Part shown: positions 1 to 7,307 of the stretch, in pieces | Layout: each line of letters opens with the position of its first letter | Position numbering within the stretch: position 1 is the first letter of the stretch | From: an uncultured bacterium | GTDB lineage: Bacteria > Methylomirabilota > Methylomirabilia > Methylomirabilales > CSP1-5 | NCBI GenBank assembly: GCA_964429865.1 | Contig: CAYSDK010000001.1 | Coordinates: 1 to 60,892, forward strand | Reading direction: 5' to 3' | Length of the DNA stretch: 60,892 nt | Position numbers and translations under genes: made by a program | Notes under the pieces: generated by a model | What the model saw: the letters and a program-made list of their open reading frames with translations, nothing else | What the model was told of the DNA's origin: nothing | Databases searched by the model: none

Positions 1-140
1 CAGAACGGCTCGGCGGCCTTCAACATCGCGAATGTCTGCCGCCGGCTTCTCGAAGCGGCTCCGCTCTAGTTTCCCCTTCCTCTCGACGCTGCTCCAGGAG
101 ATGGTTCTCATGGCCAATCCCGACCTCGTGGAAGGGCCAG

Positions 141-476
141 ATGAAGCCCGCGCGAGGCCATATCGATCGCGCAGAGCCGATACTGGGTGAAACGTGTCCT
201 GGACCAGGGGAATATGCTAAGCCGGGGGTGATCCGCGAGTTTCATGCGTATGGTAACCAGGACACCGGGAAGCACGCCGATTATGATGCCCGCCATGCCT
301 TCGCACGGCATATGTCGGCTGAACGCCCGAACGTGATCGATGTGGGGAGAGTCCTGAAGGAGATGTTCGAGCGTGGGCAGGCCTGGGAAACAGTTAAGCC
401 GTACCTTGAATGTATCTTCGAGGTCGAAAATCCGGCCGCCAAAGCGTCCCCTGGTGCGGCCTTCGCAAGTGAATGA
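141..476 (+). CDS. hypothetical protein (111 aa)
   Basis: The ORF has a varied, protein-like composition (e.g. VLKEMFERGQAWETVKPYLECIFEVE). No family or clear SD was recognised. The same frame stays open to the window edge, and a competing antisense ORF (108..494) looks less protein-like. Confidence 0.3.
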   Translation: MKPARGHIDRAEPILGETCPGPGEYAKPGVIREFHAYGNQDTGKHADYDARHAFARHMSAERPNVIDVGRVLKEMFERGQAWETVKPYLECIFEVENPAAKASPGAAFASE

Positions 477-786
477 GATGGCGGCCGCTAACAAGTGCCC
501 GCTACGGCCAGGAAGAGTGGATCATTTCTGTGACGGAAAGCTAGCAGGCTGCTCTTAGCTTCGGGCCGGAAGAGCGGTGACGCTCTCGGGGATGCTTTGC
601 GTGTCCTCTAGGAGGCGACAGGCTACTTTTCGATGGCTTTGTCCTGGCGCACAACCTGACACTAACTCAGGGTGCCGTCAGCCATTTTACTGCCAGTATG
701 ATGCTGAAGGGTGAGTATCGCTAGGATGTTGCCGGACTCCGGCCTAAAGCCCTCCGAGTTGCGGGGAGGGGAGGGGTTGAGGTAGA

Positions 787-1059
787 ATGAAGCCACCTTT
801 ATATATATTGGAGGCAAGGGTGGCGAAGAGGAGGGTACATCTCAGCTTTCCGGGCAAGCTCAAGGACGAGCCGCTCTTGTGGCACACGTGCGAGCGGTTC
901 GACCTGGTCTTCAACATCCGCCAGGCCGACTACACCGAAGGGATGGGATGGCTGATGGCCGAGCTGGAAGGAGACGCGGAGCAGCTCGAAGAGGGGATCC
1001 GCTGGCTCGAGGAGCAAGGGGTCATCGTCGGCCCCATCGAGCAGGACGTGGTCCAGTGA
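787..1059 (+). CDS. stand-alone NIL-domain protein (MetN C-terminal-like ferredoxin-fold domain), copy 1
   Basis: 90 aa. It is alignable to the 75-aa ORF at 1320..1547 (SFPGKLKDEPLLWHTCERFDLVFNIRQA vs TYPSKLIKEPVLYRVAKDFKLVPNIRKA). The pattern matches the NIL domain of methionine ABC importers. A GAGG-type SD lies upstream. Confidence 0.7.
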   Translation: MKPPLYILEARVAKRRVHLSFPGKLKDEPLLWHTCERFDLVFNIRQADYTEGMGWLMAELEGDAEQLEEGIRWLEEQGVIVGPIEQDVVQ

Positions 1060-1068
1060 GTTTTTTGC

Positions 1069-1100
1069 TTGACAGCCCCGGAGGCGTTTGGTCTTATAGA
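1069..1100 (+). promoter_or_regulatory. candidate sigma70-type promoter for the riboswitch-controlled operon
   Basis: TTGACA at 1069-1074 is followed 17-20 nt later by the A/T-rich 'tcttataga'. This sits ~25 nt upstream of riboswitch helix P1. Confidence 0.4.
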
Positions 1101-1122
1101 GCGACAATTGAATAGAAGTTCA

Positions 1123-1306
1123 CTTCTCATCAAGAGCGGCTGAGGGACAGGCCCTAGGAAGCCGCGGCAACGGTCCCGCCGACCTGGTCGGCGGGAAGAC
1201 GTGCCAACTCCTACATCCCGATCTCGCGTGTCGGGGTGAGAGATGAGAAGGTGGATGCGCAGACGTCGTGCAAACCCCTTCTCATGCGGAGAAGGGGCTT
1301 TTTTTT
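1123..1306 (+). promoter_or_regulatory. SAM-I (S-box) riboswitch: aptamer 1123-1250 plus terminator/antiterminator expression platform
   Basis: Helix P1 pairs cuucucauc (1123-1131) with gaugagaag (1242-1250). The conserved core is present: AUCAAGAG-GG-GAGGGAC-GGCCC--GAAGCC--GCAAC ... GUGCCAA-UCC ... AGAGAUGAG. The P1 3' strand (1243-1251) can alternatively pair with the terminator 5' arm (ccuucucau, 1277-1285), which is the classic SAM-off design. Confidence 0.9.
1275..1306 (+). terminator. intrinsic terminator of the SAM riboswitch expression platform
   Basis: Stem ccccttctc (1275-1283) / gagaagggg (1289-1297) with loop atgcg, followed by c + T8 (1298-1306). Confidence 0.85.
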
Positions 1307-1319
1307 GGAGTGAACGAGT

Positions 1320-1547
1320 ATGGCGACGCGACGGTGGTCGTTGACATACCCCTCGAAGCTCATCAAAGAACCGGTGCTGTACCGGGTGGCGAAGGACTTC
1401 AAGCTCGTCCCCAACATCCGGAAGGCCCGGGTGACCGAGACGACCGGCGAGGTGCTCGTCGATTTTTCCGGCAAGGAGGAGGACCTCAAGAAGGGATTGA
1501 ACTATCTCACCGGTCTCGGGATCACGGTGAAGGAAGTGCGGGAGTAG
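1320..1547 (+). CDS. stand-alone NIL-domain protein, copy 2 (first gene downstream of the SAM riboswitch)
   Basis: 75 aa and paralogous to 787..1059. A GGAG SD lies 8 nt upstream of the ATG. Confidence 0.75.
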   Translation: MATRRWSLTYPSKLIKEPVLYRVAKDFKLVPNIRKARVTETTGEVLVDFSGKEEDLKKGLNYLTGLGITVKEVRE

Positions 1548-1566: not shown

Positions 1567-2847
1567 ATGGCCAAGATCAAAGGGCTGAAGTGCCGCGAGT
1601 GCGGTCGCCCGTATCCGGCCGAGCCGCTGCATGTCTGCGAATTCTGCTTTGGCCCGCTCGAAGTCGAGTACGATTACGCGAGCCTGCAGAAGACCGTCAC
1701 TCGCAAGCGGATCGAGGCCGGCCCGCCGAGCATGTGGCGGTATCGCGACCTGCTTCCCGTCGACGAGGAGCTGTCGGTGGGGAGGCACTGCGGCATGACC
1801 CCCCTGATCCGGGCGAGGAACCTCGCCGACGCCTTGGGGGCCAAGGAGGTGTACATCAAGAACGATGCGGTCTGCCATCCCACCCTCTCCTTTAAGGATC
1901 GGGTGGTGGCGGTCGCGGTGACCAAGGCGATGGAATTCGGCTTCACCGTGGTCGCCTGCGCCTCGACAGGAAACCTGGCCAACTCCGTCGCCGCCCATGC
2001 GGCCGAGGCAAGGCTGAAGAGTTTCATCTTTATCCCGGCCGACCTGGAGCAGGGCAAGATCGTCGGCACCCTGATCTATGACCCGGTGCTGGTGGCCGTG
2101 GATGGCAACTACGACGAGGTTAACCGCCTCTGCAGCGAGGTGGCCGACAAGTATGGCTGGGCCTTTGTGAATATCAACATCCGGCCGTACTACGCGGAGG
2201 GGTCCAAGAGCTTCGGCTACGAGATTGTCGAGCAGCTCGGCTGGCGCACGCCCCGACATATCGTGGTCCCCGCGGCCGGTGGGTCGCTCGTCACGAAGAT
2301 CTGGAAGGCGCTCAAGGAGTTTCACGGGTTGGGATTGATCCCGGACTGTGCAACCCGGATGCATGTGGCCCAGGCAGCGGGCAGCAGTCCCATCGCGACG
2401 GCCATTCGCAACCGGTCCGAGACCATCCGCCCGGTCCGCCCCAACACGATTTGCAAGTCGTTGGCCATCGGCAACCCGGCAGACGGATACTATGCGTACA
2501 AGGCGGTCGAGGAGAGTCGGGGCTACGCCGCGGACGCGAGCGACGAAGAGATCATTAATGGGATGACCCTCCTCGCCGCGACCGAGGGGATCTTCACCGA
2601 AACCGCCGGTGGGGTCACGGTAGCCGCCGCCAAACGGCTTCTGGAGGACGGCGTCATCCCCCGCGACGAGAGCGTCGTGCTCTCGATCACCGGAAACGGG
2701 CTCAAGACACAGGAGGTGGTGGGAGGCGTCCTCAAACCACCCCTTTCCATCAAGCCGACTCTAAAATCGTTTGACGCGGTGATCGCGGAACGGCCGGATC
2801 TCGGGGCCGATGTCGTCTCCAGGGCTTCGAACGCCCGTCGTGGATAG
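1567..2847 (+). CDS. thrC: threonine synthase family PLP enzyme with N-terminal zinc ribbon (ThrC-like; possibly a MetM-type O-phosphohomoserine-dependent homocysteine synthase)
   Basis: N-terminal CRECG...CEFCFG zinc ribbon. PLP-lysine motif HPTLSFKDR. Glycine-rich loops CASTGN and GSS. AGGAGG SD. 426 aa. Confidence 0.85.
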   Translation: MAKIKGLKCRECGRPYPAEPLHVCEFCFGPLEVEYDYASLQKTVTRKRIEAGPPSMWRYRDLLPVDEELSVGRHCGMTPLIRARNLADALGAKEVYIKNDAVCHPTLSFKDRVVAVAVTKAMEFGFTVVACASTGNLANSVAAHAAEARLKSFIFIPADLEQGKIVGTLIYDPVLVAVDGNYDEVNRLCSEVADKYGWAFVNINIRPYYAEGSKSFGYEIVEQLGWRTPRHIVVPAAGGSLVTKIWKALKEFHGLGLIPDCATRMHVAQAAGSSPIATAIRNRSETIRPVRPNTICKSLAIGNPADGYYAYKAVEESRGYAADASDEEIINGMTLLAATEGIFTETAGGVTVAAAKRLLEDGVIPRDESVVLSITGNGLKTQEVVGGVLKPPLSIKPTLKSFDAVIAERPDLGADVVSRASNARRG

Positions 2848-2862
2848 GGGAGGGAGAACCGC

Positions 2863-3138
2863 ATGAGCGTCCTCGTCCGGATTCCGACACCCCTCCGAAC
2901 CCTGACCAACGGACAGGCCGAGGTTCAAGCAGAAGGGAGCTCTATCCGGGAGCTGATCGACAACCTGGAGGGGCGTTACCAGGGATTGAAAGAACGGCTC
3001 TGTGAGGGGAAGGACATCCGCCGCTTCATTAATGTCTACGTGAACGAAGAGGATATCCGATTCCTCCAAGGCACCGCGACCCCGCTGAAACCCGGAGATC
3101 GGGTTTCCATCGTTCCTGCCATCGCCGGAGGGAGATAA
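2863..3138 (+). CDS. MoaD/ThiS-family ubiquitin-like sulfur-carrier protein, C-terminus ...AIAGG-R
   Basis: 91 aa with beta-grasp family features: LRTLTNG, an FINVYVNEE-type core, [17 protein letters not shown], then one extra Arg before the stop. Strong SD (GGGAGGGAG). Confidence 0.8.
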
Positions 3139-3158
3139 TTCCATCCCAACACATATGC

Positions 3159-3203
3159 AGGCCAAGTGTCAGGCCGAGATCCCGACACTTGGCCTTTTCT
3201 TTT
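3159..3203 (+). terminator. intrinsic terminator closing the NIL-thrC-moaD-like operon
   Basis: 12-bp stem aggccaagtgtc (3159-3170) / gacacttggcct (3184-3195), followed by ttttcttttg. Confidence 0.8.
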
Positions 3204-3665
3204 GCGATAGGGGTGGCTTGGTCTGGGTTTTGCAGAACGGTTGCGACGCGTGAATCAAAAAGGAAAGGGGGTGAGACAGGTGGATCGAAAGGGACACAAC
3301 CCGAAGGCGTGGTACGAGCGCGAGGAGCGTCGTGGCCTCAAGCGGTCGCAGCCCAGACGGACGCGCAAGGAGGGAGAAAAGGAGGGGAAGAAAGGCGGCG
3401 GAGGGAGAACCACCCCGGAGGAATGGTGGGAGAAAAACTCTTGACATAGCCGCTTCCCTTCCCGCATCTTTGGTGTCAGGGCGATCGAATGAGCGCTCGG
3501 TCAATCTCCCTGCAGCCTATCCTCTATTATATTATTATTATCTGATCTACCAGGGCATCTTTTTGCGGTCACGGATCTGGTCCTTGGGGGATCATGAATC
3601 ACTCAAGCGTCAAAAGAGCCCTCCCGTCGAACCGAAGGTTCCCTCGTTAAAGTAATGGATGAACA

Positions 3666-4547
3666 ATGACGGGCGAAGCGGCGCTGAGGACGGACATTAA
3701 GGTCATCGGCGTGGTCGGGGCTGGGACCATGGGTCACGGCATCGCCCAGGTGGCCCTGCAGTCTGGATTGCAGGTTTTCCTGCACGATCTGGAAGAGGCG
3801 ATTCTGAAGCGGGCCCGAGAGCGCATCGCGGCAGGCCTTGCCAAGGGGGTGAGGAGGGGAAAGTTCGGCGAGGACGAAAAGGAAGAAATGCTCAAGGGGC
3901 TCGTCCTCACGATCACCCCGTTGGATCTATCCGCCGCCGACTTTGTGATCGAGGCGGTCATCGAGGACTTGGCCGTCAAGCGGACCCTATTTCAGGACCT
4001 GGACCGGATCGCGAGACCCGAAGTCATCCTGGCCACCAACACCTCCTCACTCCCCATTACAAAAATCGCCTCGACGACCTCCCGGCCATTCCAAGTCATC
4101 GGCATGCACTTTTTCAACCCGGTCCCGCTGATGCCCTTGGTCGAGGTGATCCGCGGGCTCGCCACCGCTGACGAGACGGTCACGGCCACGGTCCGGCTGG
4201 CAGAGCGACTCGGGAAGACCCCGGTGGAGGTCCGCGACAGTCCCGGCTTCATCTCGAGCCGCATCCTTGCATCCATGGTCAACGAAGCGTGCTATCTTCT
4301 CATGGAGGGGGTCGGCACCGCCGAGGCGATCGACACCGTGATGAAGCTGGGGGCCAACCATCCGATGGGCCCGTTGGCGCTCGGCGATCTGATCGGCCTC
4401 GACGTCTGCCTGGCCGTCATGCGGACGCTGTACGAGGGGATCGGCGATCCCAAGTACCGTCCCTGCCCCCTGCTGGTCCAGATGGTGGACGCGGGGTATC
4501 TGGGGCGAAAGAGTGGGCGGGGGTTTTACACCTACGAGAAGGGCTAG
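3666..4547 (+). CDS. hbd: 3-hydroxybutyryl-CoA (3-hydroxyacyl-CoA) dehydrogenase, NAD-binding
   Basis: N-terminal Rossmann motif IGVVGAGTMGHGIAQ. HFFNPVP motif. C-terminal 3HCDH domain (MGPLALGDLIGLD). Confidence 0.9.
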   Translation: MTGEAALRTDIKVIGVVGAGTMGHGIAQVALQSGLQVFLHDLEEAILKRARERIAAGLAKGVRRGKFGEDEKEEMLKGLVLTITPLDLSAADFVIEAVIEDLAVKRTLFQDLDRIARPEVILATNTSSLPITKIASTTSRPFQVIGMHFFNPVPLMPLVEVIRGLATADETVTATVRLAERLGKTPVEVRDSPGFISSRILASMVNEACYLLMEGVGTAEAIDTVMKLGANHPMGPLALGDLIGLDVCLAVMRTLYEGIGDPKYRPCPLLVQMVDAGYLGRKSGRGFYTYEKG

Positions 4548-4551
4548 CGAC

Positions 4552-5334
4552 GTGGAGTACAAGCATCTCATCTATGAGGCGGCTTCTGGGATCGCCACCA
4601 TCACGCTGAACCGCCCGAAGGTCATGAACGCCCTGAGCCTGGCGCTCGCTCGGGAGCTCCTGCAGGCCGCCACCCGGGCCGAAGGCAATCCCGCCATCCG
4701 TGCCCTGATTGTCACCGGCGCCGGCGAGAGGGCCTTTGCCGCCGGAGCAGATATCGCTGCCTTCAGGAACATGGGCGCGGGAGAGGCCCTGGGCTTTCTC
4801 ACAGAGGTCCAGGCCGTGATGAATCGGATCGAACGGCTGAAGAAGCCGGTCCTGGCCGCCGTGAACGGGTATGCGCTGGGCGCCGGCTGTGAGCTGGCCA
4901 TGGCCTGCGACATGATCTATGCCGCCGAGACGGCGAAGTTCGGCCTGCCGGAGGTGAATCTGGGGATCATCCCGGGCGGGGGCGGGACCCAGCGCCTCCC
5001 CCGTCGTGTCGGAGGTGCGCGGGCGAAGGAATTGATCTATACCGGCGAGATGATCGACGCGCAGGAGGCGTACCGGATCGGCCTGGTGAACAGGGTGTTC
5101 CCTGCCCCAGAGCTCATGGCCGGGACGAGGAAGCTGGCCGAAAAGATCGCCCTCAAGGGCGCGGGTGCGATCGAATCCGCCAAGAAGGCTATCACCGAGG
5201 GGGCGGACCTCGATCTCAAGCGGGCACTGGCGCTCGAGGCCAAGGCCTGCGCGCTGTGCTTTGACACCGAGGACAAAACAGAAGGGGTGAGCGCCTTCCT
5301 CGAGAAGCGGGAGCCCCGCTTCAAGGGAAGATAG
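4552..5334 (+). CDS. crt: enoyl-CoA hydratase (crotonase family)
   Basis: [25 protein letters not shown] and [16 protein letters not shown] motifs. The start is set at GTG 4552, just after the hbd stop; the longer ORF from 4513 would overlap hbd. Confidence 0.88.
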
Positions 5335-5346
5335 GCGGGGAGGGGC

Positions 5347-6486
5347 ATGGATCTCGGGTTGAGCCCACGGCAGGAGATCTTCCGGGACATGGTCCGGGAC
5401 TTTGCCGAGACAGAGGTGGCGCCCCGGGCCGCCGCCGTCGATGCAGAGGCGCGTTTCCCCGCCCAGACGATCAGGATGATGGGAGCGCTCGGCCTCATGG
5501 GGGTCGCCATCCCGGAAGAGTATGGCGGAGCGGGCGCGGATACGATCTGCTATGTCATCGCCATTGAGGAGATCAGCCGCGCCTGCGCCTCCACCGGGGT
5601 TATCATGTCGATCAATAACTCCATGGTCTGCGACCTCGTCCACAAGTTCGGCGATGAGCGGCAGAAGCGACGGTTCTTGATCCCTCTCGCCCGGGGTGAG
5701 CAGCTGGGCTGTTTCTGCCTGAGCGAGCCCGACGCCGGCTCCGATGCGGGCAATCTGCGCGTCACCGCGCTGGCCGAGGGCGATCACTTCGTCCTGAACG
5801 GAGTCAAGAATTTCATCACGAACGGCCGCGAGGCGGATATCGCCATCGTGTTCGCCACGGTCGACCGCCAGCTCAAGCACAAGGGGATCTCTGCCCTGGT
5901 CGTCGAGAAGGGGACGCCGGGATTTCAGGTGCTCAAGGAGGAGAGCAAGCTGGGGGTCCGGGGCAGCAGCACGTGCCAGCTTCTCTTCGAGCATTGCCGG
6001 GTCCCCCGGGAGAACCTCCTGGGAGAGATCGGCGAGGGCTTCAGGATCGCCATGGCCTCCCTCGATGGAGGCCGGATCGGGATCGCCGCACAGGCGGTCG
6101 GAATCGCCCGCGCCGCCCTCGAGGCCTCTCTCCAGTACGCCCGGGGCCGCGTCCAGTTCGGAAGGCCCATCGCCTCCTTTCAGGCCATCCAGTTCCTCCT
6201 CGCGGATATGGCGACCCGCGTCGATGCCGCGCGTCTCCTCACCTACCGGGCCGCCTCTCTGAGAGATTGCGGGGCCCCATACACCGCGGAGGGCTCCATG
6301 GCCAAGCTCTCTGCGTCGGAGGTCGCCATGTGGGTGACCACCAAGGCCATCCAGATCTATGGGGGATACGGGTATATCACTGACTACCCGGTCCAGCGCC
6401 ACTTCCGGGACGCGAAGGTCACCGAGATCTACGAAGGGACTTCAGAGATCCAACGGCTGGTCATCGCCGAACATCTCCTGGGATAG
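5347..6486 (+). CDS. short-chain (butyryl-type) acyl-CoA dehydrogenase
   Basis: ACAD N/M/C domains: CFCLSEPDAGSDA, KNFITNG, and YEGTSEIQRLVIA at the C-terminus. Good SD. Confidence 0.9.
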   Translation: MDLGLSPRQEIFRDMVRDFAETEVAPRAAAVDAEARFPAQTIRMMGALGLMGVAIPEEYGGAGADTICYVIAIEEISRACASTGVIMSINNSMVCDLVHKFGDERQKRRFLIPLARGEQLGCFCLSEPDAGSDAGNLRVTALAEGDHFVLNGVKNFITNGREADIAIVFATVDRQLKHKGISALVVEKGTPGFQVLKEESKLGVRGSSTCQLLFEHCRVPRENLLGEIGEGFRIAMASLDGGRIGIAAQAVGIARAALEASLQYARGRVQFGRPIASFQAIQFLLADMATRVDAARLLTYRAASLRDCGAPYTAEGSMAKLSASEVAMWVTTKAIQIYGGYGYITDYPVQRHFRDAKVTEIYEGTSEIQRLVIAEHLLG

Positions 6487-6509
6487 CCCCTGGAAGAATC
6501 GGGGACGTG

Positions 6510-7307
6510 ATGCGCATCGTCGTCTGTGTCAAACAGGTCATCGACCCAGAGCTTCCCGCCAGTCAGTTCCGCATCGATGCGGAGTCCAAACGGCAGCGGC
6601 CGAATGGCCACCCCCTCGTCATCAGCCCGTATGACGAGAATGCCCTGGAGGTTGCCCTCACGCTTAAGGAGAAGACGGGCGGCACGGTAGCGGTGGTGAG
6701 CGCGGGGGAGCCGTCGGCGATCAGCGCGCTTCGCAAAGGGCTCGCCATGGGCGCGGACGAGGCCGCCTTGATCAGCGATCCCGCCCTCGCCGGATCGGAT
6801 GCCTTCGGCCTCGCCGTCGCCTTGGCCCGCGGGATACAGAAACTCGGCACCCCCGATCTGGTCCTGTGCGGCTGTGAGTCCGGGGACTGGGCCGACAGGA
6901 CCGTGGGTCCCATCCTGGCCGAGGCGCTCGATATCCCATGCGTCTCCTTTGTGGCCCAGGTGGAGGCGCAGGACGGCCGGCTGCGCATGCGGCGCGTCGT
7001 GGAGGAGGGCTACGAGATCTGGGAGGGCGCGCCACCTCTGTTGCTCACCATTCTCAGTCACGAGTCGAATGTCCCCAGGTATCCAAAGGTCAAGGACATC
7101 ATGACCGCCTCCCGGCGATCGATCCCGACGTGGTCAGCCGGCGACCTGGGCGTCGAGGCCGGCGATATTGGGAAGGCGGCCATGCGAACAGAAGTCCAGC
7201 AGCTCACGCTTCCGAGTCGAGAGTCCCGCTGTGAGTTGCTGGACGGCCAGCCGGCGCAGCAGGTCACGACCCTGATCACGAGACTCCGCGAGCGGAAGGC
7301 GATCTAG
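6510..7307 (+). CDS. etfB: electron transfer flavoprotein beta subunit
   Basis: MRIVVCVKQVIDPE N-terminus typical of EtfB. A GTG at 6507 is an alternative start. Confidence 0.9.
   Translation: MRIVVCVKQVIDPELPASQFRIDAESKRQRPNGHPLVISPYDENALEVALTLKEKTGGTVAVVSAGEPSAISALRKGLAMGADEAALISDPALAGSDAFGLAVALARGIQKLGTPDLVLCGCESGDWADRTVGPILAEALDIPCVSFVAQVEAQDGRLRMRRVVEEGYEIWEGAPPLLLTILSHESNVPRYPKVKDIMTASRRSIPTWSAGDLGVEAGDIGKAAMRTEVQQLTLPSRESRCELLDGQPAQQVTTLITRLRERKAI

Follow-up and report, generated by a model that had tools for sequence, protein, structure and literature searches.

The window analysed here is a 60,892-nucleotide stretch of DNA (contig CAYSDK010000001.1 of assembly GCA_964429865.1) from an uncultured bacterium of the order Methylomirabilales. 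Near its start it carries two genes for small, free-standing NIL-domain proteins, NIL1 (820..1059, + strand) and NIL2 (1320..1547, + strand), placed on either side of an S-adenosylmethionine (SAM) riboswitch and ahead of genes for a ThrC-like enzyme and a MoaD-like carrier. NIL genes were found to be co-conserved with such enzyme/carrier pairs, which are best read as the MetM/MetO thiocarboxylate route from O-phosphohomoserine to homocysteine. By analogy with the C2 domains of MetN, the two NIL proteins may form an accessory ligand-binding heterodimer that regulates MetM/MetO, an interpretation that we regard as evenly poised between right and wrong. Pathway and domain are each already known separately; a paper that connects NIL with sulfur-carrier proteins or with MetM/MetO was not found in the searchable literature, outside of which the original MetM/MetO paper lies. 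The same literature gave no role for free NIL proteins beside such a pair, in agreement with a first reading of the DNA made by a model from the letters (the sequence-only reading), which had stated that none was established.

The NIL proteins and their enzyme and carrier neighbours

Both proteins were assigned to the Pfam family NIL (PF09383, cut-off 24 bits) by hidden Markov model (HMM) search, with 55.4 bits (E-value 5.8e-15) for NIL1, searched as 787..1056, and 49.8 bits (E-value 3.2e-13) for NIL2 (1320..1544). No domain besides NIL was detected in either protein in the Pfam search, and both ATPase and ferredoxin fusions are absent from these proteins of 79 and 75 aa, respectively. In a six-frame search of the 1.82-Mb host genome, NIL1 and NIL2 were the only NIL domains and no MetN-type NIL was found, with 93.5% completeness of the assembly limiting this and all further statements of absence; the MetN model TIGR02314 scored 27 bits versus a cut-off of 500, and no C-terminal ABC (ATP-binding cassette) ATPase fusion was present. 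The AlphaFold2 (AF2) model of NIL1 (predicted local distance difference test (pLDDT) 91.5) has a beta-alpha-beta-beta-alpha-beta order, and its top PDB matches in Foldseek were all MetN C2 domains (3TUZ/3DHW/3TUI/3DHX; template modelling (TM) score 0.77–0.80, root-mean-square deviation ~2 Å, 33% identity), with the wider list, including 2QRR/2QSW/3CED, spanning TM scores of 0.71–0.80. The NIL1 sequence by itself matched a MetN C2 domain in the PDB at an E-value of 1.2e-5. The structure model was made for NIL1, and the fold of NIL2 is assigned from its HMM match.

The Pfam scores and the superposition of the NIL1 model on MetN C2 thus bear out the sequence-only reading of two genuine stand-alone NIL domains without ATPase or ferredoxin fusion, and their likeness to each other (36% identity over 75 aa, BLASTP E-value 1e-17) upholds the claim that they are paralogs. 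For the open reading frame (ORF) given there as 787..1059, frame and strand hold and the start does not: NIL1 most likely begins at GTG 820 rather than ATG 787, since its homologues are 79–80 aa long, a GGAGG lies 8 nt ahead of GTG 820, and ATG 787 falls within a conserved −10-like box (TAGAAT, 783–788). Orthologues of NIL1 across the order share 61–92% identity at a length of 79–80 aa. NIL2 has a GGAG 9 nt ahead of its ATG.

The N-I-R-x-A beta-strand is the most conserved part of these NIL proteins. N32 in the F-N-I of NIL1 was aligned by HMMER to N295 of the MetN in 3DHW, and across 53 NILs of MetM/MetO context N32 is at least 90% conserved and I33, R34, and A36 are invariant. NIL1 has an invariant signature of its own (RVHLxF, FNIRQAD, GW.M.ELEG, PIEQD), and the C-terminal PIEQDVV tail is kept in NIL1 and most partner NILs and lost in NIL2.

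NIL2 is followed by the gene of a MetM-like homocysteine synthase candidate (1567..2847, + strand; 426 aa), a ThrC-family pyridoxal 5'-phosphate (PLP) enzyme with an N-terminal zinc ribbon (Pfam PALP, 214.7 bits, and a zinc-ribbon match, 'NinF'). It scored ~278–279 bits on TIGR00260, on which another gene of the genome, a thrC on contig C9, scored higher (327 bits). After 15 nt follows the gene of a MetO-like ubiquitin-fold sulfur carrier of the ThiS/MoaD family (2863..3138, + strand; 91 aa), which matched Pfam ThiS at 68.5 bits, with NCBIfam SAMP1/MoaD-family matches below their cut-offs. The genome further encodes a homoserine kinase (thrB, 265 bits) for O-phosphohomoserine supply, a ThiS-ThiF fusion (E1-type activator, contig C54), and a JAB protease (Prok-JAB, 91.9 bits, contig C89). 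No MetX (best 19.7 bits versus a cut-off of 500), no genuine Cys_Met_Meta_PP enzyme (the best match was partial, at 40 bits), and no DUF39 (PF01837) match was found in the genome, and therefore MetM/MetO is the only homocysteine route found at this level of completeness.

MetM converts O-phosphohomoserine to homocysteine, and metM of Streptomyces albulus has an upstream SAM riboswitch (PMC12172450); in GapMind 2026, MetM, MetO, Mec, and MoeZ are listed as an experimentally supported Streptomyces pathway, in which MetM is the MetO-thiocarboxylate-dependent homocysteine synthase and works together with Mec, a hydrolase, and MoeZ, a sulfur ligase (PMC13759103). The window resembles the S. albulus system in that a ThrC-family enzyme adjoins a ThiS/MoaD-type carrier with a Gly-Gly motif behind a SAM riboswitch, with E1 (ThiS-ThiF), JAB protease, and homoserine kinase in the same genome, and differs from it in the two NIL genes ahead of the enzyme, as neither PMC13759103 nor PMC12172450 names a NIL component. 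The ThrC-like/MoaD-like pair of the sequence-only reading is thus no orphan: it matches the MetM/MetO homocysteine route published in 2024, which went unnamed there. As relayed by secondary sources, the work in question, by Hasebe et al. 2024 (AEM 90:e01247-24), reportedly describes MetM/MetO homocysteine synthesis from O-phospho-L-homoserine in Streptomyces albulus.

Orthologues of the enzyme with 59–96% identity were found in at least 589 species genomes, from phyla including Methylomirabilota, Omnitrophota, Planctomycetota, Nitrospirota, Nitrospinota, Thermodesulfobacteriota, Elusimicrobiota, Poribacteria, and Chloroflexota. For a locus survey, the best 80 MetM loci were taken, of which 67 (~15 phyla) had enough flanking sequence to be evaluated. 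Of these 67 loci, 51 have a NIL gene no more than 5 kb from MetM; outside the window's order this gene follows the carrier on its downstream side. A fixed sample of 121 genomes from the phylum comprised 88 with both NIL and MetM, 15 with MetM only, three with NIL only (two of them MetN-like), and 15 with neither; counts are given instead of a significance test because related genomes are not independent. The NIL genes are hence co-conserved with the ThrC-like/MoaD-like pair (51/67 loci, 88/121 genomes with both), and since the NIL fold was assigned as well, neither outcome that would have refuted the sequence-only reading came about.

Transcription control around the pair

Between the two NIL genes, a SAM-I riboswitch aptamer (S box, RF00162; 1124..1249, + strand) was detected as a full-length model match at 84.4 bits versus a gathering score of 44.4 (E-value 1.6e-18), which places, as had been read from the sequence, one NIL gene outside and the other first inside the riboswitch unit. 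A terminator scan found a 9-bp G+C-rich hairpin followed by T8 at 1275..1305 (+ strand; CCCCTTCTC-loop-GAGAAGGGG then T8), an intrinsic terminator belonging to the expression platform, and aptamer and terminator are both visible in the fold of 1105–1325 (z = −4.7). Judged from the sequence, the 3' strand of aptamer helix P1 (AUGAGAAGG) can pair instead with the terminator's 5' arm (CCUUCUCAU), and by this alternative P1/terminator pairing the riboswitch would be an OFF switch of the usual layout. NIL2, the enzyme, and the carrier would accordingly be repressed by SAM, as they are located behind it. Among the loci of the order that were tested, 12 of 14 with tandem NIL genes have a SAM riboswitch between them.

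Two promoter-like sites were read by inspection on the + strand, namely P1 of NIL1 (759..788; TTGCGG at 759–764, an 18-nt spacer, and TAGAAT at 783–788) and P2 of the riboswitch transcript (1069..1100; TTGACA at 1069–1074, ~17–20 nt, and TCTTATAGA); neither was reported by a strict consensus promoter scan. Two genomes of the same genus (G043 and G009) and contig L003 share a conserved block CCGGGGTTG...GGTA(G/C)AATGAAGCC ahead of NIL1. We infer that NIL1 is transcribed from its own promoter outside SAM control, both promoters being predictions. A second regulatory RNA upstream of NIL1 was considered and rejected, as cmscan of 400..1330 (E-value up to 5) gave chance-level matches only besides the SAM riboswitch.

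A possible two-NIL unit and its function

In MetN, two C2 domains pair via an antiparallel strand and bind L-methionine across the interface, with a switch of the beta-sheet register; the L-methionine that binds to one C2 domain forms a hydrogen bond with N295 of the partner, N295A abolishes detectable methionine binding, and the binding of methionine shifts the strand register around A299 (PMC6233128). The NIL proteins of the window share Pfam family and fold with the C2 domain of Escherichia coli MetNI (3DHW, 3DHX, 3TUZ, 6CVL), and both the Asn equivalent to N295 and the interface-strand Ala are conserved in them. They differ in being free-standing proteins of 75–79 aa without an ABC ATPase, in an invariant Arg after the Asn-Ile, in being encoded by two diverged genes instead of forming two identical domains, and in having a biosynthetic enzyme/carrier pair and not a transporter as their partner.

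On this analogy, NIL1 and NIL2 would pair via the conserved N-I-R-x-A beta-strand in the manner of MetN C2, and the heterodimer would bind methionine or a close relative across its interface. The MetM-type enzyme would make homocysteine from O-phosphohomoserine with the thiocarboxylate sulfur on the ubiquitin-like carrier, and the ligand-bound NIL unit could rapidly feed back, at the protein level, on enzyme, carrier, or carrier maturation. NIL2, metM, and metO would be made only at low SAM, and NIL1 from its own promoter irrespective of SAM. What the analysis shows is the identity and fold of the domain, its genomic linkage and gene fusions, its retention across the order, and purifying selection on both genes; dimerisation, ligand, target, and direction of regulation are inferred.

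A working unit of two NIL domains is suggested by tandem NIL-NIL proteins that arose independently beside MetM/MetO. Nine such proteins were found in an exhaustive HMMER search with NIL1, and their loci hold MetM and a carrier, directly adjacent in Planctomycetota and ~3.3 kb downstream on the same strand in Nitrospinota. In a tree of the separated halves, both halves are sisters in the Planctomycetota proteins and likewise in P0079, which means that the tandem form arose more than once; such proteins fit a two-NIL working unit. By HMM score, the C-terminal half of the tandem proteins favours the NIL1 model and the N-terminal half the NIL2 model. Reading NIL1 and NIL2 as orthologues of the tandem halves was rejected, since the tree shows the tandems of Planctomycetota and P0079 to be independent duplications. 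The tandem proteins are 164–196 aa in size and were seen in L180–L183 (~5001–5530) and L172–L176 (~5001–5492 in L173, L175, and L176).

Several observations weigh against the reading as a regulatory heterodimer. No NIL gene was present within 5 kb of MetM in 16 of the 67 evaluable loci, and in the 15 MetM-only genomes of the phylum sample, whose MetM orthologues have 62–71% identity, NIL is absent from the whole assembly, which indicates a NIL-less form of the system within the same class; NIL is a frequent but not an obligatory partner of MetM/MetO. The invariant Arg of the N-I-R-x-A strand is absent from MetN, for which reason the ligand may differ from methionine. An AF2 model built for a naturally occurring tandem NIL-NIL protein (pLDDT 76.6, predicted TM score 0.55, from nine sequences only) does not show how the halves pack. 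Split regulation is not universal either, as at the gathering threshold no SAM riboswitch was detected between the NIL genes of L102 (G003; gap of 228 nt, 3248–3475) and L103 (G066; gap of 12 nt, 3535–3546), both of one genus. Finally, the MetM/MetO identity of the enzyme and carrier rests on family, genomic context, and regulation. The genomes with MetM and without NIL belong to genera g13, g14, g33, and others (e.g., G019, G020, G064, and G107), and G008, which is of the same genus as G003 and G066, has the riboswitch.

Carrier fusions bring in an alternative, in which the NIL proteins are carrier-handling adaptors that dock on MetO or its C-terminal tail and hand it over to JAB protease, E1, or MetM, or that form a removable cap blocking its Gly-Gly end for as long as it is not required; we consider this possible, if rather unlikely. 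In at least 13 species loci, a ThiS-NIL fusion was found in which the carrier end (...IIPAIAGG) is joined by a short linker to a NIL domain, as an adaptor or cap following directly on AIAGG would be, and for the fusion in L047 both ThiS and NIL were upheld by Pfam. Of ~120 carriers next to MetM, just 14 stop right at Gly-Gly, the others continuing for 1–17 residues (often R, K, or C) or into an entire NIL domain. The carrier of the window has one residue after Gly-Gly (AIAGG-R, C-terminus at 3133–3135). Because most carriers extend past Gly-Gly, proteolytic maturation, presumably trimming by the JAB protease, seems the norm for this carrier family, and the need for it suits an adaptor, as do the JAB genes that adjoin NIL1 in family f5 and in L008. 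Against it stand the only characterised setting of NIL, which is that of a small-molecule-binding regulatory domain, the location of the highest conservation in the ligand/dimer strand, and the tandem NIL-NIL proteins without carrier fusion, which are hard to explain as caps. Adaptor or cap and ligand sensor are not mutually exclusive. The fusion loci are L032, L036, L041, L042, L047, L048, L049, L050, L057, L058, L062, L073, and L087 (~6250–6850 in most), with ORFs of ~171–190 aa in metagenome-assembled genomes of Planctomycetota, Omnitrophota, Thermodesulfobacteriota, Myxococcota, and Sumerlaeota.

A ligand-binding NIL pair was also compared with other routes that join NIL, or a sulfur carrier, to homocysteine or cysteine synthesis. 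In the DUF39 (HcyBio, COG1900) route from aspartate-semialdehyde to homocysteine, a NIL protein (MA1822, DvMF_0262) is likewise tied to homocysteine synthesis, and it carries a 4Fe-4S ferredoxin domain and partners DUF39; the NIL proteins of the window have no ferredoxin domain, the genome has no DUF39 match, and the enzyme is a PLP-dependent ThrC homologue using a protein thiocarboxylate. Protein-thiocarboxylate routes to homocysteine and cysteine are also formed by HcyS/HcyD/HcyF/MetY of Wolinella succinogenes and CysO/CysM/Mec of Mycobacterium tuberculosis. Like the system of the window, these comprise a Gly-Gly ubiquitin-like carrier that may need trimming, an E1-like activator, and a JAB/metalloprotease; they differ in using an O-acetylhomoserine sulfhydrylase or a CysK-type enzyme. 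To our knowledge, neither of them has a NIL component.

A farther-reaching proposal, which is doubtful and put forward tentatively, is that stand-alone NIL proteins constitute a new class of small allosteric regulators of ubiquitin-like sulfur-carrier pathways that work as two-NIL units. The unit would have been built in at least three ways, namely as a presumed homodimer of one gene, by repeated tandem fusions, and from the two diverged genes of Methylomirabilales. In this order, an asymmetric NIL1/NIL2 heterodimer would combine RNA-level SAM signals and protein-level methionine/homocysteine signals to gate carrier maturation or MetM activity. MetM/MetO-type genes are still annotated as "threonine synthase" and small hypothetical proteins in hundreds of species of many phyla. 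If the proposal is true, a conserved third partner, doubled here, would leave the published pathway incomplete for most of its carriers, and the widespread stand-alone NIL proteins would for the first time gain a biological role beyond transporters. Expression and binding assays of this small pair should be simple, which makes a NIL role in homocysteine synthesis directly testable. The question bears also on the NIL/ferredoxin route of methanogens and sulfate reducers, and it matters for the metabolic reconstruction of NC10 methane oxidisers; no other homocysteine route was found in this genome.

Distribution, age, and selection of the two copies

The two-gene NIL1-riboswitch-NIL2 layout is specific to the order of the window, which is of Methylomirabilales type. 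In the phylum sample, two NIL domains ~500 bp apart were present in all five sampled families of this order, and other orders of the class had one NIL or none. All ten other genomes of the same genus have two NIL domains, and among 25 further genomes of the order, two NILs were counted in 21, three in 1, one in 2, and none in 2, where the four genomes with one or no NIL are 74–88% complete. A search with the NIL1 alignment returned 42 species loci at a minimum of 62% identity, nearly all labelled Methylomirabilota/NC10; the next best matches were single NILs after MetM-MetO in Zetaproteobacteria (42–48% identity). The order NIL1-NIL2-MetM was found in 36 of the 36 NIL1-type loci extending far enough downstream, followed by ThiS (searched with a profile built from unfused carriers) where the contig reaches it. 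A third NIL1-type copy was seen in G011 at a contig end (L094, contig C31, 3033–3239), ~1.5 kb past a further ThiS-like gene; it hardly differs from the NIL1 of that genome and may be either a true additional copy or a duplicate made in assembly.

This conserved arrangement bears on whether NIL1 belongs to the genes upstream of it. A variable set of genes precedes NIL1, including ATP sulfurylase/PAPS (3'-phosphoadenosine 5'-phosphosulfate) reductase/siroheme genes (directly upstream in L003–L007, L092, L095, and L101), a rhodanese or a JAB protease with ThiS-ThiF genes (L008, L099, and L017), or unrelated small ORFs (the window and G043). Together with the position of NIL1 outside the SAM riboswitch, the sulfur genes among these neighbours speak for a split in which NIL1 serves upstream sulfate-assimilation/cysteine (CysO/CysM-type) genes and only NIL2 belongs to MetM/MetO. 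Such a split is improbable. In the window and in G043, NIL1 is still attached to the riboswitch-NIL2-metM-metO genes although its upstream genes are unrelated, and the sulfur-activation genes of the host genome are on other contigs (C54 and C89). NIL1 also has its own conserved promoter-like block, and its constant neighbour, in every NIL1-type locus long enough downstream, is the NIL2-metM-metO unit. A reading of NIL1 as part of an upstream sulfate-assimilation operon was rejected because the upstream genes vary and the downstream neighbours are constant.

In maximum-likelihood (ML) trees, NIL2 forms a clade (support 99/93) within a group (100/96 to 100/98) of partner NILs from Nitrospirota, Omnitrophota, and Planctomycetota and does not group as sister to the single NIL that the sister orders have, and NIL1 forms its own clade (96/99) outside this group. 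The alignment underlying these trees has ~81 columns, the trees do not settle the relative age of the copies, and a single clade of NIL1 and NIL2 was not rejected by the approximately unbiased (AU) test (p = 0.23). A recent tandem duplication was discarded as an explanation because the ML trees nest NIL2 among the partner NILs of other phyla and leave NIL1 outside, a result tempered by the AU test. Mean identity is 68% within NIL1, 55% within NIL2, and 35% between the two. From these comparisons we conclude no more than that both copies predate the order and are strongly diverged, and the paralogy proposed in the sequence-only reading is thus old and not that of a recent tandem copy. The ratio of nonsynonymous to synonymous substitution rates (dN/dS) was 0.04–0.17 for NIL1 and 0.03–0.14 for NIL2, which points to purifying selection on both genes.

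A reading of NIL1 as redundant or decaying, a duplicate with no role of its own, is strongly disfavoured and very improbable: the copies share fold and neighbourhood and a single origin is not rejected by the AU test, but NIL1 is the better conserved of the two, has a low dN/dS (0.04–0.17), occurs in each of the five families of the order, and combines 36% identity to NIL2 with an invariant signature of its own. A relay in which the NIL proteins carry persulfide to the carrier or enzyme fits the sulfur-metabolism neighbourhood and the rhodanese genes nearby in relatives, and is hardly credible, since the translation of NIL2 is free of cysteine, the sole cysteine of NIL1 (Cys25) is replaced by Ser in most orthologues with no Cys among the invariant columns, neither NIL has a ferredoxin domain, and no DUF39 gene was found in the genome; of the roles suggested in the sequence-only reading, that of a sulfur-carrying relay adaptor is therefore unlikely.

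Around the locus, the ORF upstream of NIL1 in the window (3..476, 157 aa, open at the contig start) and a 99-aa ORF that precedes NIL1 in the more distant contigs L008–L011 (5058–5354 in L008) had no Pfam or NCBIfam match. Four ThrC-family paralogs are present in the genome in all, and a PALP enzyme followed by the ThiS-ThiF fusion is likely a CysM/CysO-type cysteine module; the loci of these paralogs and of the module are C9:39427-40383, C50:4867-5835, C64:5723-6703, and C54:6341-8258. Downstream of the carrier gene, a gap of ~530 nt without a convincing ORF (3139..3665) leads to a 3-hydroxyacyl-CoA dehydrogenase gene (3666..4547, Pfam), after which a beta-oxidation/electron transfer flavoprotein cluster was recognised by eye; in the relatives L003–L007, a thiolase gene takes the position of this dehydrogenase.

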